A DNA stretch of 64,000 bases from Gemmatimonadales bacterium (GCA_041613315.1 JBFJHJ010000001.1:1452-65451), one strand, 5' to 3'; counted from the first letter of the stretch, positions 5,635 through 35,703 are shown. Notes: a model not told the origin generated them from the sequence alone. Numbers and translations are program-made.

Positions 5635-7155
5635 TTACTCGACGGCCGGTTCGCCCCCGCCCAGCGCCCGCTCCGCGGGGGGCGTAAAGAACGGCGCCCA
5701 CTTCGCCGTCGGCGACGCGGCCGTCAAGAGGCTCACGCCGACCAGCAATCCCACCGAAGCCAACACCCCCGGGATCACGATGTAGTCGCTGCTGGCGAAA
5801 TCGAAGCTCGTGCCACCAAGCGTCATGGTGAAGTTCACGCCGAGCCGTCCCAGCACGCCGATGCCCACGATGCTCCCGAGCCCGCCGGCGATACACGCGA
5901 CGCCGCCCGCCGGCGTCACGCGCTTCCAGAGAAACGCCGCCAGGAGTGCCGGCGTGAGGCTCGCACCGACGAGGGAGTAGGCATAGAGCGCCATCGAGAG
6001 CACGGTCTGGAACTGGGTAAGGAGGTAGAGGCCGACCCCTCCGAAGAGGACGACGCAGGCCCGCTGCACGCTCAGCTTGGCCCGCTCGCTGGCCGCGGGG
6101 TCGATGAACCGCTCGTAGAGATCGCGGCTCACGTTGGTGGACGGCACGAGGAGGAAGGTGTTGCCCGTGGAGAGCACGATCGCGACTGCGGCGGCGAGCA
6201 GGATCGCCCCGCCGAACAGCGGCATTCCATGCCGGGCGATGAAGAGAATCACGGTTTCGGACGCCGCCCGTCCCACGATGGACGTCTGCTCGGCGAGGTC
6301 GGGATACACCGCACGGCCCACGATCGCCAGTAACGCGAGCATCGTCTCGATTACGACGATCCCCACCACCATGCCGATCACGGCCCGTCGCGCCGCGCTC
6401 TCGTTCTTGGCGGAGAAGAACTTCTGATACATCCCGCTTTCGCCCATGATGAGGAGAAACGTCGGCATGGCCACGCCCAGGACCCAGAGGATGTTGTGGC
6501 CGCCCAAGGGAGTCATGTGTTCCGCCGGGAGCCGCGCCATCACCTCCCCGACCCCGCCCGCCGCGAACACCATGTAGGGGACGGCGAACACGACAGCCAG
6601 CGTGATGATGACGCCGTTGAAGACATCCACGGTCACGATCGACACCATGCCCGCGAGCGCGGTGAACAGCACGATCGCCCCGGCGGTGATCAACATCCCA
6701 GCGGTGGGCGTGATGCGTCCGTCGGTGACGATGCTGAGGATCCACCCGCCGCCGCGGAACTGATAGGCGGCGATCGTCACGTAGGCGAGGATGATGGCGA
6801 CGGTGCCCAGCACGCGTGCGGTCGTGTTGTACCGCTGCTCCAGGAGATCGGGCACCGTGTACTGCGCGATGCGCCGCACGCGCCCCGCGATGAAATATGC
6901 CACGATCAACCCCACCCACCCTCCGAAGGAGAACCACAGCTCCGTGATGCCGCTCCGGTAGGCGAGTCCGGCCCCGCCGAAGAGCGATCCCGACCCGATC
7001 CACGTGCAGACGAGCGTTCCGACCAGAAGCGGCACCGGCACCGATCGGCCCGCGACCATGAAGTCCGCGTGGCTCTTGACCGACCGTGAGCGCCACAGGC
7101 TCACGCCGAGGAGGATGACGGGATAGGCGAGCACGACGGCGACGAGCAGAGTCAT
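5635..7155 (-). CDS. Sodium:solute symporter family transporter
   Basis: 506-aa polytopic membrane ORF. The N-terminal pattern SHADFMVAGRSVP...TWIGSGSLFGGAGLAY is typical of the SSF family. Confidence 0.85.
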   Translation of the reverse strand: MTLLVAVVLAYPVILLGVSLWRSRSVKSHADFMVAGRSVPVPLLVGTLVCTWIGSGSLFGGAGLAYRSGITELWFSFGGWVGLIVAYFIAGRVRRIAQYTVPDLLEQRYNTTARVLGTVAIILAYVTIAAYQFRGGGWILSIVTDGRITPTAGMLITAGAIVLFTALAGMVSIVTVDVFNGVIITLAVVFAVPYMVFAAGGVGEVMARLPAEHMTPLGGHNILWVLGVAMPTFLLIMGESGMYQKFFSAKNESAARRAVIGMVVGIVVIETMLALLAIVGRAVYPDLAEQTSIVGRAASETVILFIARHGMPLFGGAILLAAAVAIVLSTGNTFLLVPSTNVSRDLYERFIDPAASERAKLSVQRACVVLFGGVGLYLLTQFQTVLSMALYAYSLVGASLTPALLAAFLWKRVTPAGGVACIAGGLGSIVGIGVLGRLGVNFTMTLGGTSFDFASSDYIVIPGVLASVGLLVGVSLLTAASPTAKWAPFFTPPAERALGGGEPAVE

Positions 7156-7211: not shown

Positions 7212-8213
7212 TCACGCCGGCGGGACCGGCAGGGGATCCTCGGCATAGTGGCATGCCACCCAGCGGCCGGGCCGCACCTCCCGGAGCGGCGGGGCCTCGG
7301 CGCGGCACCGGTCGCTCTTCTGCGGGTGCGGGCACCGGGGGTGGAACAGGCAGCCCGACGGGGGACGCCGGAGACTCGGTGCGTCGCCCGACAGCACGAT
7401 GCGCGCGCGTCGACGGTCAGGGTCGGGGACCGGCACGGCGGAGAGCAGCGACACCGTGTAGGGGTGGAGCGGTGCGGCGTACAGCGCGGTGCTCGACGCC
7501 ACCTCCATGAGCGTTCCCAGATAGATCACGGCCACGCGGTCCGCCAGATACCGGACGACGGCGAGGTCGTGCGCGATGAAGAGGTACGTGAGCTCGCGAC
7601 GGCGCTTCAGGTCGGCGAGGAGGTTCAGCACCTGGGCCTGCACCGACACGTCGAGCGCGGAGACCGGCTCGTCCAACACGAGAAAGTCGGGCTCCACCGA
7701 CAGCGCCCTCGCGATGGCGACGCGCTGCCGCTGGCCGCCCGACAACTCGTGCGGAAAGCGGTCGACATAGGTGGGGTCCAGCCCGACCTCCGCAAAGAGC
7801 GCTCGGACGCGCGCGGCTGCGCTTCCTTTCGGCTCCAGCCGGTGCACCTCCACCGGCTCCCGGACGGCGGCACCGACCCGCATCCGCGGGTTGAGCGACC
7901 CGTAGGGATCCTGGAAGACGATCTGCATTCGGCGGCGCAGCGCCCGCAGCCGCGCGGGGGGGAGCGCCAGCACGTCCTCGCCGTCGAACCGGACCTCGCC
8001 GGACGTAGGTTCCGCCAGTCGCAGGATGCAGCGACCAATGGTGGTCTTGCCGCTGCCGCTCTCTCCGACGAGCCCGAGCGTCTCGCCTCGAGCGACGGCC
8101 AGGGAGACCCCATCGACGGCGCGGAGCGCAGCGCGCGGACGAAAGAGCCCGCCGCCCACGTGATACTCCTTGACGAGGGCACGAACCTCCGCGAGCGCGT
8201 GTCCGTGCGTCAT
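7212..8213 (-). CDS. Oligopeptide/dipeptide ABC transporter ATP-binding protein (OppF/DppF-like)
   Basis: Start at the ATG at 8213 ([10 protein letters not shown]...) within ORF 7212..8681. Walker [10 protein letters not shown], signature LSGGQRQR, Walker B LVLDEP, and a C-terminal oligopeptide-type tail (CLFHPRCPH). ATGA overlap with the upstream gene. Confidence 0.9.
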
Positions 8214-24246: not shown

Positions 24247-24756
24247 ATGAGCTTCCCCGGACGCATCGAGTCCCTCGCGGGTCCGCTCCCCCCCGTCGCG
24301 TTCCGGTGGGATGCGGAGACCGAGATCCTGGCCGCGCGGCTCACGGGTGTGCGGGGCCAACGCGGCTTCAGCGGGAGCGTCGAGTTCGAAGACGGTCGCG
24401 GCGCCGTGCTCACGCTCGATGTCGAACTGGGGGTCGCCTGCGGGCTGGAGGTCGTGGTCTGGCCCGAGGCGGACGTCGTGGACACGCTGGCGCCGCCGAC
24501 GCCGAAGCGCCAAGGGCGTCTCGTGGTGCCGGCGCGGCCGTCCCAGCCGGAGATCGGCGTGGTGGAGTTGGAGGTCTCCCTCTCCGCCGAGCGCAGCGCC
24601 GACGAATCGGTGATTCACGTGCGTGTGGGCCCTGCCCGCAAGTCGGAGCCGGTGAGTCTGGGCACCGGGCTCATCGCCGACGTGGACGGTGACGGCGATG
24701 TCGCCGGTTTCTGGCTCGTGGGCGTTCCGCCGTTCCCGACCGCGAAGGGGGTATGA
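24247..24756 (+). CDS. Hypothetical protein
   Basis: 169-aa ORF with ordinary composition and two similar halves, each ending in a ...LD/VDGDG..G.... pattern. Its stop overlaps the next start (ATGA at 24753-24756). Confidence 0.5.
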   Translation: MSFPGRIESLAGPLPPVAFRWDAETEILAARLTGVRGQRGFSGSVEFEDGRGAVLTLDVELGVACGLEVVVWPEADVVDTLAPPTPKRQGRLVVPARPSQPEIGVVELEVSLSAERSADESVIHVRVGPARKSEPVSLGTGLIADVDGDGDVAGFWLVGVPPFPTAKGV

Positions 24757-26402
24757 GGCGCTCGGTTGCGGCAGCGATCGCCGCGGTGGTGGCGACGGCC
24801 CCGTCGGCGCCGGGCCAGACGCCGCCCGACGTGCGCGTCTTCGTCAATGCGCGGATCTGGACCGGTGATTCCGCGGCGCCGCTCGCGGAGGCCGTGGCCA
24901 TCCGCGGCGACCGCATCATCGCCGTGGGCGGACGGGCAGCCGTCGAGCGGGCAGCCGGCGCGGCGGCCGGCCGCGAGGATCTCGGAGGACGCTTCGTCGT
25001 CCCCGGGTTCATCGACACGCATACCCATTTCGGGCGCGCCGGGGAGCTCCTGCTCGGCGTGAACCTGCTGGATGTGTCGGACGATGCCGGGCTCGTCCGG
25101 CGCGTCCGCGAGGCGAACGCGCGCCTGCCCCCGGGTTCGTGGATGGTCGGTGGCGACTGGGGCGCTTACGACCTCGAGAGCCGGTGGGCGCCGTCGCGTC
25201 CGCTCCTCGATTCGCTGACGGGCAGTCGACCGACGCTCCTCAGCAAATGGGACCGCTCCCAGTACGTGGCGAATGCCGCCGCCCTCCGGGCCGCCGCCCT
25301 GGATCCCGCGCGCCACGACGGGCGCCTGACGCCGGAGGAAGCGCAGGGCATCCGCGGCGTCATCCCCGTCCCACCCTTCGAGCAACGGCTCGCCGAAGCC
25401 CGGCTCGCCCTCCAGGACCTGGCCCGACACGGCGTGACCGAAGTGCATGACATCACCGGCGCCGGGCAGATGCGGATCTTCCAGCACCTCCTGGCGCGGG
25501 ACTCCCTCACGGTCCGCGTGTGTGCCCGCCCGACGCTGGATCAGTGGGAGCACCAGGCAGCGCTCGGCATCGTGACCGGCTTCGGCAACCGCATGCTCCG
25601 CTACTGCGGTCTCAAGGGATTCGTCGACGGCATCATGGGGAATTCTTCGGCGATGTTCCGAGAGCCGTATCGCCACCTCCCCGCGACACGCGGCCGGTGG
25701 CGGGACATGATGTCGCCCCCCGGCACGATGGAGCGTTTGATCGCGGGCGCGGATGCGGCCGGCCTGACGCCGCAGGTTCACGCCATCGGGGACCTCGCCG
25801 TTGACACGCTCCTGGACATGTTCGCGATGGCGATCGCGACGAACGGCCCCAAGGACCGCCGGTTCCGCGTGATTCACGCGCAAGTCGTCGAGCCGGACGA
25901 CGTCGCCCGATTCGGTGAGTTGGGAGTGATCGCCGAGGTCCAGCCCTACCACGCGATCGACGACATGCGCTGGATGGAGGAACGGATTGGGGAGCGGGCA
26001 CGCGGGGCCTACGCGTTCCGCTCGCTCAAGGCGGGCGGGGCGCTGCTCGTCTTCGGCTCCGACTGGCCCGGCACGAACGCCTCCTGGTATCCGGCGGAGC
26101 CGCTGCTTGGGATCTACGCCGCCGTGACCCGAAAGACCCTCGACGGTGTCCCGCCCGAGGGCTGGTTTCCGGCCGAGCGTCTGAGCGTGCGGGAGGCGCT
26201 CGAGGCCTACACCACGGCAGCAGCGTACGCCGGGTTCGAGGAGCGCGTGAAGGGGAAACTCGCGGCCGGCTATGTGGCGGACCTGGTCGTGCTGTCCGAC
26301 GATCTCTTCGCGATCCCGCCTGACGCGATCAAGGACGTGCGGGTTCTCGGCACGATGGTCGCGGGCCGCTGGGTGTACCGCTCGGGGCCCGTGACACCCT
26401 GA
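24753..26402 (+). CDS. Metal-dependent amidohydrolase (Amidohydro_3-like), secreted
   Basis: Signal-like N-terminus. Motifs PGFIDTHTHF, HAIGD and FGSDWP. 549 aa. Confidence 0.85.
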   Translation: MRRSVAAAIAAVVATAPSAPGQTPPDVRVFVNARIWTGDSAAPLAEAVAIRGDRIIAVGGRAAVERAAGAAAGREDLGGRFVVPGFIDTHTHFGRAGELLLGVNLLDVSDDAGLVRRVREANARLPPGSWMVGGDWGAYDLESRWAPSRPLLDSLTGSRPTLLSKWDRSQYVANAAALRAAALDPARHDGRLTPEEAQGIRGVIPVPPFEQRLAEARLALQDLARHGVTEVHDITGAGQMRIFQHLLARDSLTVRVCARPTLDQWEHQAALGIVTGFGNRMLRYCGLKGFVDGIMGNSSAMFREPYRHLPATRGRWRDMMSPPGTMERLIAGADAAGLTPQVHAIGDLAVDTLLDMFAMAIATNGPKDRRFRVIHAQVVEPDDVARFGELGVIAEVQPYHAIDDMRWMEERIGERARGAYAFRSLKAGGALLVFGSDWPGTNASWYPAEPLLGIYAAVTRKTLDGVPPEGWFPAERLSVREALEAYTTAAAYAGFEERVKGKLAAGYVADLVVLSDDLFAIPPDAIKDVRVLGTMVAGRWVYRSGPVTP

Positions 26403-26429: not shown

Positions 26430-27455
26430 GTGCCGCGGCCGGCCCGGCGGAATCCCGCCTCGCCGGTCGGCCGGCGGCCCGGAGGCGGACGACTGACCCT
26501 CTCGATCCATCATCGGTTGCGGGACGCGCTTCTGCGCGCGGGTGGCACCCCGGGCGCGGATACGCCGCGCACGCACGCGGCGCCGCCGGTGCATTCCCCC
26601 TTCGCCGCGTCCACGCCCATCGAGCACGCGGCCGTGCGGGCGGTGGACGTGGGCGGGCCGGCCGAGCCGCCGGAGGGGACGGGGTTCCTCGACGGGATCC
26701 AGCGCTATGCCGTGGCGGGCCGAATCGGCCTCACGCCCGTCGTCCGTGCGGTAGTGGCGGCGGCCGTGCTCACCCGGCGGGCGGGCGCCCTGCGGCCCGC
26801 GCAGGTCGCGCACGAGGAGTTCGTGGTGGTTCCGTTCGCGCGGCTCACGGGAGCACAGCGGTCGGCGCTCGAGGAGGCGGACCTCCAGCTGCTCGAGTGC
26901 GAGGTCGACGAGCGCGCACACCCGATCCTCGACGTCCAGGCGGCGGTGCACGTGATCGAGCAACGCCGGGAGGCCCTGGAGCGACAGGTGGCGGAAGCGC
27001 ATCTGGTGGAGGAGCGTGACGCGTGGCTGGTCGTGGACGGGCCGATCGGCGCGCTCACGTGGCGGGGCGACGGACCCCCCCGGGTCCTGGGGATCGTCAA
27101 GAGTCACGAGACGCAGTACCTCGAGGGACCGGACCTGGAGGCGGCGCTCACCCTTCCCGCGGGGCACCGCACGAGCGTGTTCGGCCGCGCCACGGGGGGG
27201 CGCGGGGGGCGCAGGGAGGCCTTTTCGTGGTATCTTCGGTTATGGCCATGGGAGGATCACGACCTGCTGTTTGGGCTGGTGCGGCTGGAGCGTCCGTCGG
27301 TCCCTGAGGTGGCGGGAGAAGCGACGGCGGTGAGCCGCTGGATCCTGGCTGAGCGGGCGCCGTTGGCGGCGCCCGACGGCCGGTGGGATCGCCTCATCTA
27401 TCCGATCCAGCAGGTCGAGACCTACTTGCGGGCGCAGGCCGGGGGGTGGCTGTGA
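26430..27455 (+). CDS. nurA: NurA-like nuclease
   Basis: Motifs in NurA order: FLDGIQRY, WLVVDGPI, GIVKSHETQYL, FSWYLRL. The ORF has no internal Met. The first ~65 aa are Arg/Pro-rich, so the real start may be a later GTG (e.g. 26634). Its stop overlaps the herA start (GTGA). Confidence 0.55.
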   Translation: MPRPARRNPASPVGRRPGGGRLTLSIHHRLRDALLRAGGTPGADTPRTHAAPPVHSPFAASTPIEHAAVRAVDVGGPAEPPEGTGFLDGIQRYAVAGRIGLTPVVRAVVAAAVLTRRAGALRPAQVAHEEFVVVPFARLTGAQRSALEEADLQLLECEVDERAHPILDVQAAVHVIEQRREALERQVAEAHLVEERDAWLVVDGPIGALTWRGDGPPRVLGIVKSHETQYLEGPDLEAALTLPAGHRTSVFGRATGGRGGRREAFSWYLRLWPWEDHDLLFGLVRLERPSVPEVAGEATAVSRWILAERAPLAAPDGRWDRLIYPIQQVETYLRAQAGGWL

Positions 27456-29395
27456 TTCGGCTGGGCGACCCGCGTCCGATCGGCCGCGTCGTGGCCACGG
27501 AGGCTCTGCCCGCCACGCCGCACCAATTCCACTTCTGGACCGCCACGGAGACCCCCATCGGGATCGGGACGATCGTGCGCGTGGACGGTCTCGAGGGACG
27601 GAGCGCGTATGCGGTCGTGATGGACGGACGCGCGTACTCCGATCTCGCGACACCGCTCCACGATGTCGTGGCGGCCGACGGCGATCCCGCGGGCGCCCGG
27701 GCGCCAACGCGGCGCACCGAAGTGCGCCTCTGGACGGCCGCGGTCCTGCGGCATGTGCCGGAGGAGCCCGTGCAGCCGGTGTCGCTGTCGGACGTGTGGC
27801 TGGCCACCGCCCGCGACATCGAGACGGCGCTGCGCATGGACGCCTATGTCCATGGAGACGCCCCCACGGGGATTCCGATCGGCGTGTACCGAGGGGGCGG
27901 GCTCACGGCGCCGGTCTCGCTGGACGCGGGCTTCCTGCTGGGCCCCGAGTCGGCGCACCTCAACATCACCGGGATCTCGGGTCTGGCGACCAAGACCAGC
28001 GCCGTCGAATTCATCCTCGCAAGCATCTTCCAGCACCTGCCGAGGGCGAAGGGCACCGTGGCGGCCGTGTGCTTCAACGTGAAGGGGCCGGACCTCTGCT
28101 TCCTGGACCAGCCGACGGAGCTCACGGACGAGGACCGTGAACTCTACGGGGCGCTGGGCGTCGCGCCGGCGCCGTTCAAGGGCGTCTCGTACTACGCTCC
28201 CTTCAAAGCGGACGGCGTCAACCTGAACACGCTTCGCTCGCACCCGGATCTCGTGGGCTCGGTGCAACCGTTGGTCTGGGGGCTCCGGGAGGTGCTTGAC
28301 TACCACGAAGTCCTGCTCAGCCGCGACGACCTCGACGCCAAGTCCGACGCGTTCCTCGATTTCCTCGCGGATCGTGTGGTGGAGAAGTCGTTCGATGACG
28401 ACTGGGGCAACCGGCACCGGGTGCAGAGCTTCGCCGACCTCGAGCGCCTGTTCCGGGCGATCTTCGACGGGCTGGAGGCGGCGGGGCGGGGGGACATCTG
28501 GCGCACGCATCACATCGCGACGATCCGCAAGGTGCGGAACCGGTTGCTCAACATCTCGACGCGTTGCAAGGGGCTCGTCACCGACGACGGTACGGTGAGC
28601 GATCTCCCGTTCGGCCACTTCGAGGACCGGGCGGTGTATCTGCTCGATGTGGCCGGCATGGACCAGCTGGGGCAGGATCTCGTCTTCACCCGCGTCGTCT
28701 CGCGGCTCCGGGAGCACCTCGAGCGTCGCGATCTCGGGGTCGACCATGTGGTGGTGTTCGTGGACGAACTGAACAAGTACGCTCCCGGCGACGGGCCGGA
28801 AACGTACGTGAAGAAGATGCTGCTGGATATCTCCGAGCGGGGCCGGTATCTGGGCCTTGTCCTGTTTGCGGCTCAGCAGTTCCGCTCGCAGGTGCACCGT
28901 CGCATCGTGGGCAATGCCGGCACGATGGTCTTCGGACGCATGGATATGGACGAGCTCGCGACGCCGGGGTATCAAGTGCTGTCGCCGGCGACCAAGATCA
29001 AGCTCGCGACGCTGCCCAAAGGAGAGCTGATGGTGCGACATCCGCACTTCACGCAACCGATCTTCGTCCGCTTCCCCCGTCCCGCCGTCCTCAGCGGCCC
29101 GATGGGCGTGGCCCGCTTCCCGCCGGCGACAGACGTTCCGTTCGAGGACGCCGTGGTGCGACAGCTCGTCGCTCTCGATCGCCGGGTGGCGCCGGGGCGC
29201 GTCAAGGATATGATCGCCGACCGCCGGGAGGACGAGGTGCGCCGGGCCCTCCTCGCGACGCGCCGGGCGCGACCCGCGGACGCGCTCGCGTTCTTCCGGG
29301 CAAGCCTCGGCGACGCGGTGCCGGCGACGGCGGTGCGTCGGGCGGCCGGCGCCACCACTCCGCTCCGATCGGTGGAGGATCCCTATGCGACGTGA
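27452..29395 (+). CDS. herA: HerA-like FtsK/HerA-superfamily ATPase
   Basis: GTG 27452 is in frame with ORF 27383..29395. The N-terminus is HAS-barrel-like (IGRVVATEA...FHFWT...IGTIVRVDG). It has a P-loop-like GISGLATKTS, Walker B VVVFVDELNKY, and ERGRYLGLVLFAAQQFRSQV...TMVFGRM. Confidence 0.8.
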   Translation: MIRLGDPRPIGRVVATEALPATPHQFHFWTATETPIGIGTIVRVDGLEGRSAYAVVMDGRAYSDLATPLHDVVAADGDPAGARAPTRRTEVRLWTAAVLRHVPEEPVQPVSLSDVWLATARDIETALRMDAYVHGDAPTGIPIGVYRGGGLTAPVSLDAGFLLGPESAHLNITGISGLATKTSAVEFILASIFQHLPRAKGTVAAVCFNVKGPDLCFLDQPTELTDEDRELYGALGVAPAPFKGVSYYAPFKADGVNLNTLRSHPDLVGSVQPLVWGLREVLDYHEVLLSRDDLDAKSDAFLDFLADRVVEKSFDDDWGNRHRVQSFADLERLFRAIFDGLEAAGRGDIWRTHHIATIRKVRNRLLNISTRCKGLVTDDGTVSDLPFGHFEDRAVYLLDVAGMDQLGQDLVFTRVVSRLREHLERRDLGVDHVVVFVDELNKYAPGDGPETYVKKMLLDISERGRYLGLVLFAAQQFRSQVHRRIVGNAGTMVFGRMDMDELATPGYQVLSPATKIKLATLPKGELMVRHPHFTQPIFVRFPRPAVLSGPMGVARFPPATDVPFEDAVVRQLVALDRRVAPGRVKDMIADRREDEVRRALLATRRARPADALAFFRASLGDAVPATAVRRAAGATTPLRSVEDPYAT

Positions 29396-30287
29396 GGCCC
29401 TCTGGCTGTCCGTCTTCGCGGCATGCCTCGCGCCCGGCGCGGGCCTGGCGCAGGACTCCCTGCTCCTGCGCTACCGGCCGTTGCCCGGGGCGGTCGTGCA
29501 CCTGCTGGCCTCCACCGACGTGACCATGGCGATTCGGGACGTGAGCGGCGCCGCGACCGAGGCCGGGGTCCCCGACAGCATCACGTTGGAGACGACGATG
29601 CGGCAGAGCCTTACCGAGCGCGTCCGGCAGGCGGCGGAGGGCCGCTACCTGCTCGAGCGGACGCTCGACTCCACCCGGCTGCGTCTGCGCGCGATGGCGG
29701 GCGCGTGGTCCGAGCGACCGATGGACGCGGCGAGAGGCCGGACGGCACGGGTCGTCATGAACAGCCGTCTCCAGATGGGGGACTTCCAGCTCGTGGACGG
29801 TGACGGGGCGCCGGCCGTCGCCACCAACGCGCTCCGGGCCGGCGCGACGGGGTACGAGCTCGGCTTCCCCGACGAGCCGGTGGCGGCCGGACAGAGTTGG
29901 ACGGCCGAGGTGATCTATCCCTTTGCCAACCCGATCGAGCTCGAAGGCGCGGCACGGGCGCTCGTTGCGAACGCCGAGCTCATCGCCCGAGCGACGGTGA
30001 TCCTCGACAGTCTGGTCGCGCGCCCATCCGATACGCTGGCGTACCTGCGCATGTCGGGCACGTTCCTGCCGCTCACCATTCCGGCGTCACCTGAGTCCGG
30101 CCGTGGCGCGACCGACGTGACCGGCGCGTTGGCGGGCCGGCTGATCTGGTCCACCGGGTGGAACGCTTTCGTGTCCGGCGCCTCGCGAGCGGTGATCGTG
30201 GTGCAGTCGTCCACCGGGGACTCGACCGGCCAGCCGGCGACGCGCCTGCGCTTCGACGCCACGAGCCGGTTCCGCGTGCGGCCGTGA
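29385..30287 (+). CDS. Exported protein of unknown family (paralog A)
   Basis: GGAGGA lies 8 nt upstream of the ATG, and the gene overlaps the herA end by 11 nt. Signal peptide MRREALWLSVFAACLAPGAGLA-QD. It shares the motifs LRYxPxPG, GAWSE, DSxVARxxDTLAYL and WSTGWxAFV with the next gene. Confidence 0.65.
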   Translation: MRREALWLSVFAACLAPGAGLAQDSLLLRYRPLPGAVVHLLASTDVTMAIRDVSGAATEAGVPDSITLETTMRQSLTERVRQAAEGRYLLERTLDSTRLRLRAMAGAWSERPMDAARGRTARVVMNSRLQMGDFQLVDGDGAPAVATNALRAGATGYELGFPDEPVAAGQSWTAEVIYPFANPIELEGAARALVANAELIARATVILDSLVARPSDTLAYLRMSGTFLPLTIPASPESGRGATDVTGALAGRLIWSTGWNAFVSGASRAVIVVQSSTGDSTGQPATRLRFDATSRFRVRP

Positions 30288-31132
30288 TCGCCTACACCGC
30301 GGTCGTCGCCGGCCTCCTCGTCCTGGTGCCGGCGGGCGCCCAGGCCCAGGCCGTGAGGCTGCGCTACGCACCAGTCCCGGGAACGAAGCTCACCCGCGTG
30401 TTCCAGACCTATACGCGGATGGTGGTGCGGCTTCCCGCGGCGGGTGCCGGGAAGGTGCTGGAGACGCGGGAGATGGCCGACTTGGGCGGAACCAGCGAAC
30501 TCGTCCTCCCCGGGCCCGACGGGCACCCGGTGGTGCACGTGACGGTCGACTCGCTGCGAACCCGGGAGCGGACGGAAGGGGGTGCCTGGAGTGAATCCCG
30601 AGCGGCGCTGGACTCGGTCTGGTTCCAGCTGGACTTCGACGCGCGGCTCCGGCTGCGACGGGCCAACCGCGCTGACCGCGTGCCGGAAGCGGGTGCCCTG
30701 ATGCACTTGATGACCGGTCTCCCCGGGCTCATCCTGCCCGAGCGCCCCCTCCGAGTGGGCGAGCGCTGGTCGGTCGACATGGCGATGCCCCTGTCCGCGT
30801 GGGTGATGCGGCCGTCGAGCGCCGAACGCGAACCGCCGCTCAGGGGGGAGGCGACCCTCACGGTGGACAGCGTGGTGGCGCGCACGCGAGACACCCTGGC
30901 GTATCTGAGCGTCGAGGGGACGATCGGCCCGGACACGCCGGACATCGCGACGGCCTCGGTGTACGGTGGCGGCGTAACTGGCACGCTCGTCTGGTCCACG
31001 GGGTGGCACGCCTTCGTCGCTGCCGCCACCCGCGTTCGTATGCACGTCGCGGGGCCCGCCCCGCCGACGGCTGGCGGGCCGCGGCCGCAGGTGGCGATCG
31101 AGACGACGCTTCGCCAGCAGGTCCGCCCCTAG
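30284..31132 (+). CDS. Exported protein of unknown family (paralog B)
   Basis: GTG 30284 is in frame with ORF 30158..31132 and overlaps the upstream stop (GTGA). The N-terminus is hydrophobic (IAYTAVVAGLLVLVPAGAQA-QA). It carries the same motif set as paralog A. Confidence 0.6.
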   Translation: MIAYTAVVAGLLVLVPAGAQAQAVRLRYAPVPGTKLTRVFQTYTRMVVRLPAAGAGKVLETREMADLGGTSELVLPGPDGHPVVHVTVDSLRTRERTEGGAWSESRAALDSVWFQLDFDARLRLRRANRADRVPEAGALMHLMTGLPGLILPERPLRVGERWSVDMAMPLSAWVMRPSSAEREPPLRGEATLTVDSVVARTRDTLAYLSVEGTIGPDTPDIATASVYGGGVTGTLVWSTGWHAFVAAATRVRMHVAGPAPPTAGGPRPQVAIETTLRQQVRP

Positions 31133-31136
31133 GGCC

Positions 31137-32318
31137 GTGAAGCTCGCGCACCTCGCCGACGTCCACCTGGGCTTTCGCCAGTACCACCGCCTGACGCCCA
31201 CAGGAATCAATCACCGCGAAGCCGATGTCGCTCTCGCCTTCCGCCGTACGATCGATGACGTGATCGGCACGGGGCCGGACGCGGTCGTGATCGCGGGCGA
31301 TCTGTTTCACAGCGTGCGGCCGACCAACACGGCGATCTTGGATGCGTTCAATCAGCTCCGTCGGCTCCGCGAGGCACTGCCCGCTGCCCCCGTGGTGATC
31401 GTCGCCGGCGATCATGACACGCCGCGCTCGGTCGAGACCGGCACGATCTTGCGGCTCTTCGAGGCCCTCGGCGTTCATGTGGTCGCTGCGGAAGCGCGGG
31501 AACTCGTGTTCGGCGACCTGGACCTCCGGCTCTTGTGCGTGCCGCATGCGGCGCTCGTGAGCGGCGGGCGGCCCACCCTCACCCCCAAAGGTGGAGGCAC
31601 GACCGTGCTGGTCACGCACGGCGAGGTCGCCGGCGTGCTCCCCGAGCACGCCAGCGCCCGCGAGTTCGGCGGCAGCGTCATGGAGCCCTCCGAGCTGCAT
31701 GCGGAGCGATGGGATTACGTGGCGCTCGGCCACTATCACGTTGCGCACCGGGTGCGGGACAACGCGTGGTACGCCGGCGCGCTGGAGCATGTCAGCCCCA
31801 ACCCCTGGGGCGAGCTGCAGGACGAAGCGCGCGAGGGACGGCCCGGGCAGAAGGGATGGCTCCTCGTGGACCTGAGCGACGGCGCGCGCGTGACGTTCCG
31901 GCCGGTGGTGCAGGCCCGGCGCTTCATCGATCTGAAGCCGGTGCACGGCGACGGACTCACCGCGGACGAGATCCACGCGGCCATCCGCGAGCGGGTCGAT
32001 GCGGTGGCCGGCGGCGTGACGGATCAGGTCGTGCGCCAACTCGTGTGGGACGTGCCCCGTTCGGTGGCGCGAGACCTCGACCATGAGTGGATTCGCGCGG
32101 TCAAAGCTCGGGCCCTGCACTACCATCTGGATCTCCGGCGACCCCGCCCGCAGCGCGAGGTGGGCGTGGGCGCTCCGGGCGCGCGCCAGACGCTGAACGA
32201 TCTTCTGGCGGAGTACCTCGGCCACCGGCCGCTCCCGGCCGAGCTCGACCGGACGGCGCTGGTCGCGCTGGGGCGGCGGTATATGGAGGCGGTCGACCGC
32301 GAGGCCCAGGGGACGTAG
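31137..32318 (+). CDS. sbcD: Mre11/SbcD-family nuclease
   Basis: All phosphoesterase motifs are present: DVHLG, AGDLFH, AGDHD, VTHG, GHYH. Confidence 0.9.
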   Translation: MKLAHLADVHLGFRQYHRLTPTGINHREADVALAFRRTIDDVIGTGPDAVVIAGDLFHSVRPTNTAILDAFNQLRRLREALPAAPVVIVAGDHDTPRSVETGTILRLFEALGVHVVAAEARELVFGDLDLRLLCVPHAALVSGGRPTLTPKGGGTTVLVTHGEVAGVLPEHASAREFGGSVMEPSELHAERWDYVALGHYHVAHRVRDNAWYAGALEHVSPNPWGELQDEAREGRPGQKGWLLVDLSDGARVTFRPVVQARRFIDLKPVHGDGLTADEIHAAIRERVDAVAGGVTDQVVRQLVWDVPRSVARDLDHEWIRAVKARALHYHLDLRRPRPQREVGVGAPGARQTLNDLLAEYLGHRPLPAELDRTALVALGRRYMEAVDREAQGT

Positions 32319-34748
32319 ATGCAGCTCCACCGTCTCCGCCTCGAGAACTTTCGCCAGCACGCGCAGACCGAGATCGTGTTCGGTCCCGGCATCACGGCGA
32401 TCATCGGGCCCAACGGCGTGGGGAAGACCACACTGCTCGAGGCGATCGCCTGGGCGTTCTACGGCGCCTCCGCGGCCAGGGGCAGCCGCGACACCATCCG
32501 CTGGCACCACGCCCCCGCCCGGGCATCCGTTCGCGTGGACGTCGAATTCACCCTGGGCGCCCACGAGTTCCGCGTCGTCCGAGGCCTCTACACGGCGGAG
32601 TTGTTCCAGGACGGTGCGGAGCAGCCGATCGTCATCAGTCATCAGGAGGTCAGCGCCCGGATCGAGCGTTTCCTCGGCATGACGCGAGAGGAGTTCTTCA
32701 ATACGTATTTCACCGGACAAAAAGAGCTCGCGGTCATGGCGGCGATGGGACCGACCGACCGCGCGCGCTTCCTCTCGCACGTGCTGGGGTACGACAAGCT
32801 ACGGGTGGCGCAGGACCGCCTCCGGGAGGTGCGGTCCGGCCTGCGCGGAGAGCTCGCGGGCCTTGAGCGGGGGCTGGTCGATGCGGACGAGCTCTCGCGG
32901 GAACGGGAGACGGCGGTTGCCCGACTCGCCGCGGTCAGCCGGGCCGTGGAGGAAGGGCGCACGCGGCAGGGCGCGGCGCGTCTCGCGCTCGAGCGGGAAG
33001 GCCCAGCGTGGACCCGCGCCGTCGAGATACGAGAGTCGGCGCTCTCGCTGGATGGGGAGCGACGGGTGGCGGAACGGGATGTGGACGAGGCGCGTCGCGC
33101 ATTCGAGCGGCTTGACCGCGAGCTCGCCGAGGCGCTGGCGGCGAAGGACCGGCTGGCGACGCTCGCGCCGGAACTCGACCAGGTGGCGCCCCTCAAAGCG
33201 GACCTCGAGCGCCTCGAGCGGGAGGCGCAGGGGGCCGGCCGCCGCCGGGCGTTGGAGGGACAGCAGCGCGAGGTCGCGGACCAGGTGGCCCATGTGCGGG
33301 AGCGACTGGCTGGAGCGCAGGACGCGCCGCCCCGGCTCGACGCCGCGCAGCGCGCGCTTGCGCCGGCCCGTGAGACGCTCACGGTGGCGGAGGCGGCGGA
33401 GGAGACGGCGCGGACGGCGTGGGTGCGGGACCGGCAGGACGCGGAAACGAAGCGGCAGACGTTCCGAGACCAGTATGCCGACGTGCAGAAGCACCGCCAT
33501 GCGGTCGTGGAGGCCGGGTCGGAGGGAGCGTGTCCGGTGTGCAAGCGCGCGCTGGGCGCCGTGTATCAGGAAGTGCTCGACACGTTGGAACGACAGCTGG
33601 AGGAGATCGAGGTCAAGGGCAAGTTCTTCCGGCAGCGCTACGAGCAACTCGGCACGGAGCCGGCGGAGGTTCGCGAGGCGCAGCGCCGAGCGGTTGCCGC
33701 GGCACGGCGCGTGGAAGAGGCCGTGCAGGACGTGGCGCGGTGGGAGGCGCGGGAGCGGGAGCGGGCCGAGTTGGATACGGAAGTCGCGCGGCTCGAGGAA
33801 CACCGCCGGGCACTCGAGCGCGAGGTGGCGGCGCTCCCGGACACGTATGATGCGGAACGGCACGACACGGTACGCCAGCGGCTCCGGGCGCTGGAGCCCA
33901 CGATCCAGCAGGCGGCAGAGGTGCGGGGGAAGGCCGAGCGGGCCGAGCGGCTGGTCACGGAGGCCGAAGCGGCCGAGAAGGCGCTCTCTCAGTGCGAGCA
34001 GCGCGTCAAGGATCTGCAGGCAGCCCTGGCCGATCTGGGGTACAGTGAGGAGCGTTACCATGAGGCGCGGTCGCGCTACGAGGCCGCTGCGGCCGCGGTA
34101 CGGGAGGCGGACCTGGAACTGGCGTCGGTGCAGGGAGATCTGCGGGCCTGTGAGGCGACGCTGGAGGCAGTGGCGCGGCGCATCAAGGAACGGGAGGAAC
34201 GGGCGGCGCGCCTTGTGGGCGTCCGGCGGGAGCTGGATCTCCACGACGAGCTGGACCAGACGCTCCACGACCTCCGGCTGGAGCTCAATGCGGCCATGCG
34301 GCCGGATCTGTCCGAGCGGGCGTCCGAGTTCCTCGCCGACTTGACGGACGGTCGCTATCACGAGCTGGAACTGGACGAGCAGTACCGGGTGCTGGTCATC
34401 GAAGACGGCGTCCCCAAACCCGTGATGTCCGGGGGCGAGGAGGATCTGACCAACCTGGTCCTGCGACTGGCGATCAGCCAGATGGTGGCCGAACGCGCAG
34501 GACAGCCCTTGTCCTTGCTCGTGCTCGATGAAATCTTCGGGAGTCTGGACGAGCATCGGCGGCGCAACGTGGTGGAGCTGCTCCGGCGGCTCGGTGACCG
34601 GTTCCCGCAGGTGGTGCTCATTACGCACGTCGAGTCGGTACGCGACGGCGTCGACCGGGTGCTTCGGGTGGCGTTCGACGAAGAGCGCGGGGCCGCGGTC
34701 GTGACCGACGACGAGGAGGTTCCAGTCGGTGAAGATGTGGCGGCCTGA
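32319..34748 (+). CDS. sbcC: Rad50/SbcC-family SMC-like ATPase
   Basis: Walker A GPNGVGKTT, long coiled coil with zinc hook CPVC, signature SGGEE, Walker B LLVLDE, H-loop LITHV. 809 aa. It starts immediately after the sbcD stop. Confidence 0.9.
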   Translation: MQLHRLRLENFRQHAQTEIVFGPGITAIIGPNGVGKTTLLEAIAWAFYGASAARGSRDTIRWHHAPARASVRVDVEFTLGAHEFRVVRGLYTAELFQDGAEQPIVISHQEVSARIERFLGMTREEFFNTYFTGQKELAVMAAMGPTDRARFLSHVLGYDKLRVAQDRLREVRSGLRGELAGLERGLVDADELSRERETAVARLAAVSRAVEEGRTRQGAARLALEREGPAWTRAVEIRESALSLDGERRVAERDVDEARRAFERLDRELAEALAAKDRLATLAPELDQVAPLKADLERLEREAQGAGRRRALEGQQREVADQVAHVRERLAGAQDAPPRLDAAQRALAPARETLTVAEAAEETARTAWVRDRQDAETKRQTFRDQYADVQKHRHAVVEAGSEGACPVCKRALGAVYQEVLDTLERQLEEIEVKGKFFRQRYEQLGTEPAEVREAQRRAVAAARRVEEAVQDVARWEARERERAELDTEVARLEEHRRALEREVAALPDTYDAERHDTVRQRLRALEPTIQQAAEVRGKAERAERLVTEAEAAEKALSQCEQRVKDLQAALADLGYSEERYHEARSRYEAAAAAVREADLELASVQGDLRACEATLEAVARRIKEREERAARLVGVRRELDLHDELDQTLHDLRLELNAAMRPDLSERASEFLADLTDGRYHELELDEQYRVLVIEDGVPKPVMSGGEEDLTNLVLRLAISQMVAERAGQPLSLLVLDEIFGSLDEHRRRNVVELLRRLGDRFPQVVLITHVESVRDGVDRVLRVAFDEERGAAVVTDDEEVPVGEDVAA

Positions 34749-35703
34749 GCGTGTCGTGCAGGGCCCGCGCGTGGCGTCACTCGAGGACATCCCGGCGCTC
34801 AACCGGGTGTTCTCGGATGCGTTCACCGACCGATACCGTCGGGACGGGCTGGTTGGGGTGCGAGTTCCCCAGTTGAACCCCGATATCTGGCGCTACGCGC
34901 TCGAGGATGCCGGCGACGGGGCGATGCTCTGGTACGACGAGAGCGGGGAGATCATCGCGTTCAACATCGCGCACCGCTCCGGCACCGAGGGGTGGATGGG
35001 CCCCCTCGCGGTCCGAGCCGACCGCCAGGGCCTGGGTCTTGGGCGCACGATCGTCGAGACGGCGGTCGACTGGCTTCTGGAGCGCGGTGTCACGACGCTG
35101 GGGCTTGAGACGATGCCGCGAACCGTGGACAACATCGGTTTCTATGGCCGGTTGGGCTTTCTCCCCACGTATCTGACGGTGACGATGACCGGCGAGCCCG
35201 GTCGACGCAACGTCGCCGGCCGGTTCCAGCGAGTGGGCGCGCTCCCGCCACACGCCAAGCGGGACATCGTGGCCCGGTGCCGCGAGCGGCTGACGCAAGC
35301 CGCCCCGGGCTACGATTTCAGCCGCGAGATGGAGCTGACCGACGAGTTGGGGATCGGCGACACCGTGGTACTCGAGCGAAACGGTGTCGTGGCGGGCTTC
35401 GCCCTGTGGCACTCGGCGCCGCTCGCCGAAGTGCGCCCCACGGATGAGCTCAGGATCCTCAAGCTGTTCGCCGACTCGACCGATGCGTTCGGGCGCCTGC
35501 TCGTGATGCTCGATGCCTGCGCCGCGGCGCTCGGGATCCGCCGCGTCGCCATCCGGTGCCAGACCGCCTACGCGGACGCCTACCACACCCTGCTGGCGCG
35601 GGAGTACCGCGTGCGCTGGACGGACCTCCGTATGACCTACGCGAGCTTCCGCGAAGCAACGCCGCCCGCGGGGCACGTGCTGTTTTCGAACTGGGAGATC
35701 TGA
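34729..35703 (+). CDS. GNAT-family N-acetyltransferase (two-lobed)
   Basis: GTG 34729 lies 9 nt after GAGGAGG and overlaps the sbcC end by 20 nt (an alternative ATG is at 34735). Acetyl-CoA motif VRADRQGLGLGRTIV. Confidence 0.75.
   Translation: MKMWRPERVVQGPRVASLEDIPALNRVFSDAFTDRYRRDGLVGVRVPQLNPDIWRYALEDAGDGAMLWYDESGEIIAFNIAHRSGTEGWMGPLAVRADRQGLGLGRTIVETAVDWLLERGVTTLGLETMPRTVDNIGFYGRLGFLPTYLTVTMTGEPGRRNVAGRFQRVGALPPHAKRDIVARCRERLTQAAPGYDFSREMELTDELGIGDTVVLERNGVVAGFALWHSAPLAEVRPTDELRILKLFADSTDAFGRLLVMLDACAAALGIRRVAIRCQTAYADAYHTLLAREYRVRWTDLRMTYASFREATPPAGHVLFSNWEI

Follow-up and report, generated by a model that had tools for sequence, protein, structure and literature searches.

We analyzed a 64,000-nucleotide stretch of DNA (hereafter the window) from a Gemmatimonadales bacterium (GCA_041613315.1 JBFJHJ010000001.1:1452-65451). 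Two adjacent open reading frames (ORFs), A and B, are located there between the genes of the HerA-like DNA translocase and the Mre11-type nuclease. Both are predicted to encode exported beta-barrel proteins. Our preferred reading, with a probability of roughly 0.62, is that A and B are exported envelope proteins and ancestral but dispensable passengers of the operon, not a part of the DNA repair machine. Conserved export signals and the repeated loss of the gene from otherwise full-length operons carry this reading.

A and B are paralogs. BLASTP aligned them over their full length with 30% identity (E = 2e-26), far above chance, in agreement with the first-pass annotation of this DNA, which had described two adjacent paralogous ORFs. 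The motifs that it had listed as shared were all present in the translations: LRYRPLPG in A and LRYAPVPG in B, GAWSE, the pairs DSLVARPSDTLAYL/DSVVARTRDTLAYL and LIWSTGWNAFVSGA/LVWSTGWHAFVAAA, and the ending ...VRP. The hydrophobic leaders, ending in ...GLA before QD (A) and in ...AQA before QA (B), were present as well, and the two DNA strings on which it had based a similarity at the nucleotide level were located at 30146 and 30991. The proposed location between herA and mre11 was also confirmed, as NurA and HerA matched structure 7f6d, and Mre11 and Rad50 matched Pfam and NCBIfam models. Overlapping stop and start codons had been claimed on both sides of the pair. Such overlaps were found between HerA and A, where the ATG of A overlaps the HerA stop by 11 nt, and between A and B, which share 4 nt and where the GTG of B (30284) forms GTGA with the stop of A. 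There was no overlap between B and Mre11; the stop of B and the GTG of Mre11 (31137) are separated by a gap of 4 nt.

A GGAGGA Shine-Dalgarno sequence lies 6 nt 5' of the ATG of A and is the strongest and clearest ribosome-binding site of the block. The sole longer alternative start for B is GTG 30158. It was rejected because it would create a 130-nt overlap with A and add 42 Arg-rich residues that have no counterpart in the aligned B orthologs. The G+C content at third codon positions (GC3) in frame was 0.90 for A and 0.89 for B, similar to that of the neighboring genes. Ratios of nonsynonymous to synonymous substitution (dN/dS, Nei-Gojobori) were 0.15–0.19 for A and 0.13–0.15 for B between close orthologs; between close genomes, they were 0.12–0.14 for Mre11 and 0.06–0.11 for HerA. 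The possibility that A and B are spurious ORFs in high-GC DNA was rejected on the basis of GC3, conservation, and dN/dS. By these measures, A and B are both functional genes under ordinary purifying selection. Over long range, the A/B protein diverged far faster than HerA (31–43% versus 65–82% identity).

The leader of A has a basic n-region, a hydrophobic core with a mean Kyte-Doolittle hydropathy (KD) of 2.28, and small residues at positions -3 and -1, followed by a conserved Gln. In the AlphaFold 2 model of A, residues 3–14 form a helix that is followed by a low-confidence linker. The leader of B has a core with a mean KD of 3.14, and its AQA-Q site aligns with the site of A. We aligned 25 sequences of the A/B-type branch (alignment A1). 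Their leaders vary in sequence and share a common architecture, consisting of a basic start, a hydrophobic core, and a near-invariant Ala-Gln junction. A rule-based test was applied to all collected loci of that branch. A hydrophobic 10-residue window (mean KD at least 1.9) was found in 64 of the 65 distinct N-termini, and a small-x-small motif followed by Q in 63 of them. A Tat signal, for which the 'MRRR' of many orthologs was considered, was rejected because no RRxFLK-like continuation was present and many members had only 0–1 Arg.

Distant relatives in the same slot between HerA and Mre11 are of a lipoprotein type. In the alignment of this branch (alignment A2, 31 members), the Cys was invariant in all 31, and a canonical lipobox ([LVI][ASTVI][GAS]C at the leader end) was found in 38 of 41 N-termini. 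A loose lipobox pattern occurred in just 9 of the 65 A/B-type leaders. The idea that A itself is a lipoprotein, modified at the Cys of 'FAAC' in ...FAAC LAPGAGLA, was rejected because this Cys is not conserved across the A/B branch. Two kinds of export signal have been kept at one orthologous position, which is a strong argument for selection on export. A swap of signal type with export retained would be difficult to account for if the protein worked in the cytoplasm. Judged by their leaders, A and B very probably encode exported proteins.

To avoid ascertainment via the barrel protein, metagenome contigs were searched with a HerA profile, and loci with a covered HerA-Mre11 junction were classified (n = 61). 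The junction held a tandem pair in 3 loci, a single A/B-type gene in 9, a single lipoprotein-type gene in 31, and a frameshifted lipoprotein-type gene in 2. The remaining 16 junctions contained no gene, with a HerA-Mre11 gap of 5–293 nt. On a tree of HerA and Mre11, the empty junctions fell in at least 6 separate places, all within the lipoprotein-type clade. The loss loci retained full-length matches to HerA, Mre11, and Rad50, and to NurA wherever the contig reached far enough. Among closely related operons with the gene deleted, HerA was 71–77% identical. Several empty junctions still carried short in-frame remnants joining the leader to the C-terminal strands of a lipoprotein-type gene (L097/L101 at ~6047–6204, L106 at ~7962–8126, and L094 at ~2540–2656, between HerA and Mre11). 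The undeleted locus L104 and locus L097 were 97.8–99.5% identical in the flanks of a ~620-bp deletion. As the gene was lost repeatedly while the repair genes stayed full-length, the DNA enzymes are not dependent on the barrel protein. The two frameshifted genes are each split in two overlapping frames (L087 7994–8812 and L096 7784–8852). They belong to lineages adjoining gene-deleted ones, which is consistent with ongoing decay.

The distribution of the family was examined by scanning one genome per GTDB species, which gave 31 loci. All of them were named Gemmatimonadota except one titled 'Bacterium HR33'. A family member was located directly between HerA and Mre11 in 29 of these loci, as a tandem pair in about half and as a single gene in the rest. 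In all loci read, homologs were immediately 5' of Mre11-Rad50 except in L007, and directly 3' of HerA except in L007 and L031. In L031 (Bacterium HR33, BEIJ01000001.1, 7300–10068), the order is amidohydrolase, O-methyltransferase, barrel protein, Mre11, and Rad50, and NurA and HerA are absent between them. This order indicates that the barrel gene stayed with Mre11-Rad50 when NurA-HerA was lost or moved. In L007 (JAZDCZ010000091.1, 8001–9005), a lone A-type copy of 334 amino acids lies amid esterase, hemerythrin/ScdA, multicopper-oxidase, and FkbM-methyltransferase genes. The metagenome-assembled genome with this lone copy also carries an operon copy (L018), and the lone copy groups with the A of the window in the family tree, which suggests transfer, translocation, or a binning mix-up. 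Co-occurrence of the barrel gene with NurA-HerA and Mre11-Rad50 was thus not obligate, given the 16 empty and 2 frameshifted junctions, HR33 without NurA-HerA, and the lone L007 copy. The HerA frame of L018 (JAZDCZ010000254.1, 5975–7981) aligned over its full length with 76% identity and contained one in-frame stop; pseudogenization or an assembly error could account for this. On this distribution, the last ancestor shared by the sampled Gemmatimonadota probably already had an exported family member in the herA-mre11 slot.

In the family tree, the B genes formed one clade and the A genes another, and the internal branching orders of the two mirrored each other. Most single-copy genes branched basally to the A clade or next to it; that of L036 grouped with the B clade. 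The tandem state was monophyletic on the HerA and Mre11 tree. The mirrored subtrees and the monophyletic tandem state point to one old duplication after which both copies were kept. One tandem lineage went back to a single gene (L045).

A and B had no match in Pfam, NCBIfam, and PADLOC scans up to E = 10, and PDB sequence searches, run with each protein alone and with the profiles A1 and A2, returned chance-level matches only. Word-indexed searches gave 15 homolog clusters for A and 11 for B, none of them named and none with a Pfam domain. An exhaustive profile search of 1.84 billion representatives, clustered at 50% identity, returned 522 proteins with E ≤ 1e-3, of which 124 had E ≤ 1e-30. 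Fragments aside, most of the 150 matches listed were 245–337 amino acids long. Three of the weakest among the matches listed (P0157, P0166, and P0170) were lipoproteins matching Pfam DUF6263 (PF19777), an uncharacterized bacterial family; P0157 scored 28.1 bits against a cut-off of 26.7. In the lipoprotein branch, 26 of the 31 aligned members matched PF19777 (best E = 1.3e-7), with matches near the threshold that spanned only about positions 99–196, the C-terminal half of the model. None of the 25 members of A1, including A and B, matched PF19777 up to E = 10. An hhalign comparison linked A1 to A2 with 99.4% probability (E = 1.7e-21, 273 columns). Because the two branches are linked in this way while A and B never reach the Pfam model, A and B are, by profile comparison, a divergent, predicted non-lipidated Gemmatimonadota branch related to DUF6263 and not strict members of it. 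They resemble DUF6263 in that the lipoprotein-type orthologs in the herA-mre11 slot match the model and in their similar lengths (260–305 amino acids). They differ from it in having signal-peptidase-I leaders in place of lipoboxes and motifs of their own, WSTGWxAFV and ...QVRP. A literature search for DUF6263 found no paper mentioning the family, and no PLSDB plasmid was matched by a DUF6263-type member in tblastn.

AlphaFold 2 models were obtained for both proteins. The model of A was all-beta with a predicted local distance difference test score (pLDDT) of 85.4 and a predicted template modeling score (pTM) of 0.81; that of B had values of 86.0 and 0.84 and the same order of strands and helices. 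In both models, the leader is followed by three long strands (15–20 residues), an irregular middle with two short helices, and five further long strands. A and B are therefore modeled as long-stranded beta-barrels. The top Foldseek match by TM-score was the same for the two models independently, namely the N-terminal beta-barrel of large lipid transfer proteins (vitellogenin 9ens/9enr, lipovitellin 1lsh, ApoB100 9bd8, and MTP 6i7s). The Foldseek probability was 1.00, and the TM-scores normalized to the query (TMq) were weak, 0.44–0.46 for A and 0.40–0.52 for B. The scores normalized to the target (TMt) were 0.12–0.30 because the targets are much larger. These barrels are soluble and long-stranded, and the A and B models also share with them a short mid-chain helix. 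Sequence identity was only 7–11%, however, the TM-scores are at or under the usual same-fold line, and in the very large eukaryotic proteins the barrel makes up just one domain, unlike in A and B. Neither protein matched Vitellogenin_N in Pfam up to E = 10. We take the likeness as a resemblance by Foldseek scores that would not imply common descent or lipid binding. LmcA of Mycobacterium smegmatis (7n3v/7shw), PsbO, LIMP-2, and DynF were also matched, with probabilities of 0.95–1.00. They are soluble barrels of similar size, several of them exported or lumenal, but their TMq was just 0.19–0.31 and there was no sequence similarity. No viral structure in BFVD was matched by Foldseek at E ≤ 1e-3.

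The window has a G+C content of about 70%. On the plus strand, an uninterrupted co-directional row of 11 genes runs from an S58 peptidase gene through a GNAT acetyltransferase gene, with A and B in its middle (Table 1). A scan of the plus strand from 24.2 to 36.0 kb, limited to sigma-70 and intrinsic-terminator consensus and hence weak evidence, found no promoter-like or terminator-like site. Besides the DNA enzymes, the row holds peptidase, aminotransferase, amidohydrolase, and GNAT genes, so mixed function is normal for this array. Pfam and NCBIfam scans and the reading of the gene row found no membrane-spanning component encoded in the block.

Table 1. Genes and predicted signal peptides in the gene row of the window
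Feature	Position	Strand	Remarks
S58 peptidase gene	frame end 22981	+	
Aminotransferase gene	frame end 24207	+	
169-aa ORF	24247-24756	+	no family match
Amidohydrolase gene	24753-26402	+	
NurA-like nuclease gene	26430-27455	+	opens the DNA-end-processing block; PDB 7f6d_H match
HerA-like hexameric translocase gene	27383-29395 (longest frame)	+	PDB 7f6d_B match
ORF A	29385-30287	+	ATG start, 300 aa; predicted exported beta-barrel precursor, signal-peptidase-I-type branch of DUF6263-related family
Predicted Sec signal peptide of A	29385-29450	+	MRREALWLSVFAACLAPGAGLA, cut before QD
ORF B	30284-31132	+	GTG start, 282 aa; paralog of A, predicted exported beta-barrel precursor
Predicted signal peptide of B	30284-30346	+	fM-IAYTAVVAGLLVLVPAGAQA, cut before QA
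Mre11/SbcD-type nuclease gene	31137-32318	+	GTG start; Pfam Metallophos, E = 7e-12
Rad50/SbcC-type ATPase gene	32319-34748	+	Pfam SMC_N, AAA_23, SbcC_Walker_B
GNAT acetyltransferase gene	34729-35703	+	Pfam Acetyltransf_1, E = 4.5e-14; end of conserved block

NurA and HerA were identified by PDB sequence search, in which they matched Deinococcus radiodurans NurA (7f6d_H, E = 3.2e-6) and HerA (7f6d_B, E = 1.6e-39), respectively. Neither had a Pfam or NCBIfam match, even at permissive thresholds, so standard annotation would leave this NurA-HerA type 'hypothetical'. The GC3 of nurA was 0.88, and NurA orthologs (39–68% identity) were found 5' of HerA in most related loci; HerA orthologs were 65–82% identical to that of the window. 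Read from GTG 27383, the longest HerA frame would encode 670 amino acids and run over the last 73 nt of NurA. Since the called HerA genes of relatives encode 649–652 amino acids, translation probably begins at GTG 27452, where a GTGA overlap with the NurA stop would form. For Mre11, the top NCBIfam matches were archaeal Mre11 models. For Rad50, archaeal models were also the top matches, and the NCBIfam Rad50 model PRK03918 was matched at E = 1e-62.

The GNAT gene shares 20 nt with the 3' end of the Rad50 gene. It was located 3' of Rad50 in all related loci that reached far enough (L001, L003, L006–L039, and most of L040–L119), including those that had lost the barrel gene. The GNAT gene seems more tightly bound to Mre11-Rad50 than A and B are. 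The 169-residue ORF between the aminotransferase and amidohydrolase genes had good coding composition (GC3 0.88) and shares 4 nt with the start of the amidohydrolase gene; Pfam and PADLOC scans gave no match for it.

For the pair in the window, we infer the following course. A and B would be carried on one mRNA with NurA-HerA and Mre11-Rad50-GNAT. A would be translated efficiently from its own strong ribosome-binding site inside the 3' end of herA, and B by re-initiation through stop/start (GTGA) coupling. Both precursors would be exported by Sec and cut by signal peptidase I after Ala22 (A) and Ala21 (B). The mature proteins, of about 260–280 residues, would be soluble, long-stranded, closed beta-barrels. 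They would act in the periplasm or envelope, probably as ligand-binding or scaffold barrels if a ligand exists, and would not contact the cytoplasmic DNA enzymes. Position and expression would be shared with the repair enzymes by descent.

These results bear on what the first-pass annotation had made of the pair. Its observation that exported proteins sit amid cytoplasmic DNA-end-processing genes and are translationally coupled to them is supported by the conserved leaders and the stop/start overlaps. The placement is not an accident of one genome, since homologs neighbor herA and sbcCD in 29 of the 31 GTDB loci and in the lipoprotein-type loci. 'Unknown family' describes A and B correctly insofar as they match no Pfam, NCBIfam, or PDB sequence model, but they are homologous over their full length to a lipoprotein branch of which most members match DUF6263. 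The suggestion that they tether or regulate the machinery at the envelope was not borne out, in view of at least 6 losses with HerA, Mre11, and Rad50 kept, the arrangement in HR33, and the lone L007 copy. The other suggestion, an unrelated insertion that became co-translated, came closer to the evidence, except that the gene goes back to the ancestor of all sampled members of the clade and is no recent insertion.

Several observations weigh against reading A and B as exported passengers. The verdict on export rests on sequence rules, and the B leader (from GTG 30284) has no Lys or Arg before its hydrophobic core, unlike those of most orthologs. With TM-scores of 0.52 or less, the fold matches are too weak for any function to be transferred from them. 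Loss counts cover the operon junction and not copies elsewhere in those genomes, and outside the lipoprotein-type clade no loss of the last copy was seen (12 HerA-ascertained and 27 other A/B-type loci). The place next to Mre11 was firmly held at 31–43% protein identity, with HerA at 65–82%, and the tight coupling by overlapping codons was kept too. A genuine link in function could likewise account for the firm A/B-type position and the kept overlapping codons. Synteny is also conserved in the flanks outside the block, and the conserved position is therefore partly plain relatedness.

Whether the proteins leave the cytoplasm at all is one point on which other readings differ. If the leaders were not cleaved, A and B might serve the repair complex as accessory factors in the cytoplasm or anchored in the membrane, as the lack of a basic residue in the B leader of the window and the use of sequence rules to assess export would allow. 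This is extremely improbable, given that the n-h-c architecture and the small-x-small/Q site occur in 63 of 65 relatives despite variable leader sequences and that the sister branch substitutes a lipobox with Cys in every member. Once exported, the proteins could be integral outer-membrane beta-barrels, porin- or OpcA-like, and not soluble in the periplasm. All-beta models with long hairpins and predicted signal peptides would suit such barrels, and Foldseek gave E values of 1e-3 to 1e-2 to OpcA, the COG4313 channel, porins, and autotransporter domains. TM-scores to outer-membrane barrels, however, were 0.17–0.32, against 0.44–0.52 to the soluble vitellogenin/ApoB barrels. The C-termini read ...RFRVRP and ...RQQVRP (consensus ...QVRP), or ...LQLTxAK in the lipoprotein branch, with no aromatic beta-signal, and in the lipoprotein orthologs the Cys is followed by a Gly/Ser-rich tether of the kind usual in soluble lipid-anchored domains. 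Because of the lipoprotein orthologs, the non-aromatic C-terminus, and the lower scores to outer-membrane barrels, we favor a soluble exported barrel, and an outer-membrane protein appears very unlikely.

Two further explanations would give the gene order a meaning. A and B might be stress-regulon partners of the repair enzymes without a physical link, and their co-expression would be adaptive: the barrel would protect or remodel the envelope when desiccation, oxidative, or radiation stress induces the repair of double-strand breaks. This plausible, more specific version of the passenger reading would be in keeping with a row that forms a single apparent transcription unit, with long retention under purifying selection, and with a ribosome-binding site of A that is the strongest in the block, as expected for an abundant structural protein; Gemmatimonadota are also typical of dry soils. 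No regulator site was identified, and the repeated loss in one clade means that any benefit would be conditional. We consider it rather unlikely. Alternatively, A and B might be an envelope arm of the DNA machinery, with NurA-HerA and Mre11-Rad50 at the membrane or coupled to DNA movement across the envelope (uptake, extrusion, or extracellular DNA processing) and the exported barrel as periplasmic partner, receptor, or conduit. In favor of this, the herA-mre11 slot was kept from 31–43% identity to profile-only similarity, translational coupling is conserved, both duplicates are under purifying selection, and there is a precedent in the TTC1878-TdtA pair of Thermus thermophilus (PMC5365140). 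Against it, 18 of the 61 HerA-ascertained operons have lost the gene or carry it frameshifted while keeping HerA, Mre11, and Rad50, and a lone copy exists outside the operon (L007). HerA is closest to the D. radiodurans repair enzyme, the block encodes no membrane-spanning component that we could find to bridge cytoplasm and periplasm, and A, B, and NurA have no PADLOC defense-system match. An envelope arm is thus unlikely.

The passenger reading favors an ordinary explanation for the odd placement. If the link is positional only, the value lies mainly in annotation: a Gemmatimonadota-wide exported beta-barrel family of 522 representatives is tied to DUF6263 and given confident fold models, and the case cautions against 'guilt by association' for genes within the herA-mre11 block. 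A functional link would mean an unexpected coupling of double-strand-break processing to the envelope in bacteria whose phylum is associated with dry and stressful soils, and the lineages with clean deletions would serve as natural 'knock-outs' for a comparative test. It is quite unlikely that NurA-HerA and Mre11-Rad50 have a true functional partner in the exported barrel, either as the periplasmic end of a DNA-moving or DNA-processing system, comparable to NurA-like/TdtA in Thermus transjugation, or as an envelope sensor or effector that must be made in stoichiometric amounts with the repair enzymes under desiccation or radiation stress. Were this so, the repeated losses would mark lineages that gave up the extra function, and the barrel would be the first envelope component tied to the HerA-Mre11 repair operon.

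Two elements appear to be new. One is the divergent, predicted non-lipidated, and duplicated branch related to DUF6263. The other is the classical herA/mre11/rad50/nurA cluster in a bacterial form, nurA-herA-X-mre11-rad50-GNAT. A literature search for Gemmatimonad* with HerA/NurA or Mre11/Rad50 found nothing relevant, and neither the arrangement nurA-herA-X(-X')-mre11-rad50-GNAT nor this branch of proteins was found in the published descriptions consulted, which for the cluster included PMC9960219. An anti-phage defense system was rejected because the chromosomal neighborhood is conserved and no PADLOC signature was found: A, B, NurA, and GNAT had no PADLOC match, and Rad50 showed only generic SMC-head similarity (LmuB 123 bits versus 212 bits for the NCBIfam Rad50 model).

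The block shares its four enzyme types with the herA-mre11-rad50-nurA cluster of thermophilic archaea and the NurA-HerA operon of D. radiodurans, here in one co-directional packed block. It differs from them in its order, nurA-herA-X(-X')-mre11-rad50-GNAT, and in having one or two predicted exported proteins mid-block and an acetyltransferase at its end. The TdtA/NurA-like transjugation module of Thermus is similar in that a NurA-like/HerA-like pair is linked to the cell envelope (PMC5365140). In T. thermophilus, the TTC1878-TdtA pair is located at the cytoplasmic membrane and pushes DNA out of the cell; TdtA is itself membrane-associated and is encoded on a mobile element together with a restriction enzyme (PMC5365140). 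The Gemmatimonadota block differs from that module in its repair-type HerA, its conserved chromosomal neighborhood, and its separate predicted exported barrel.

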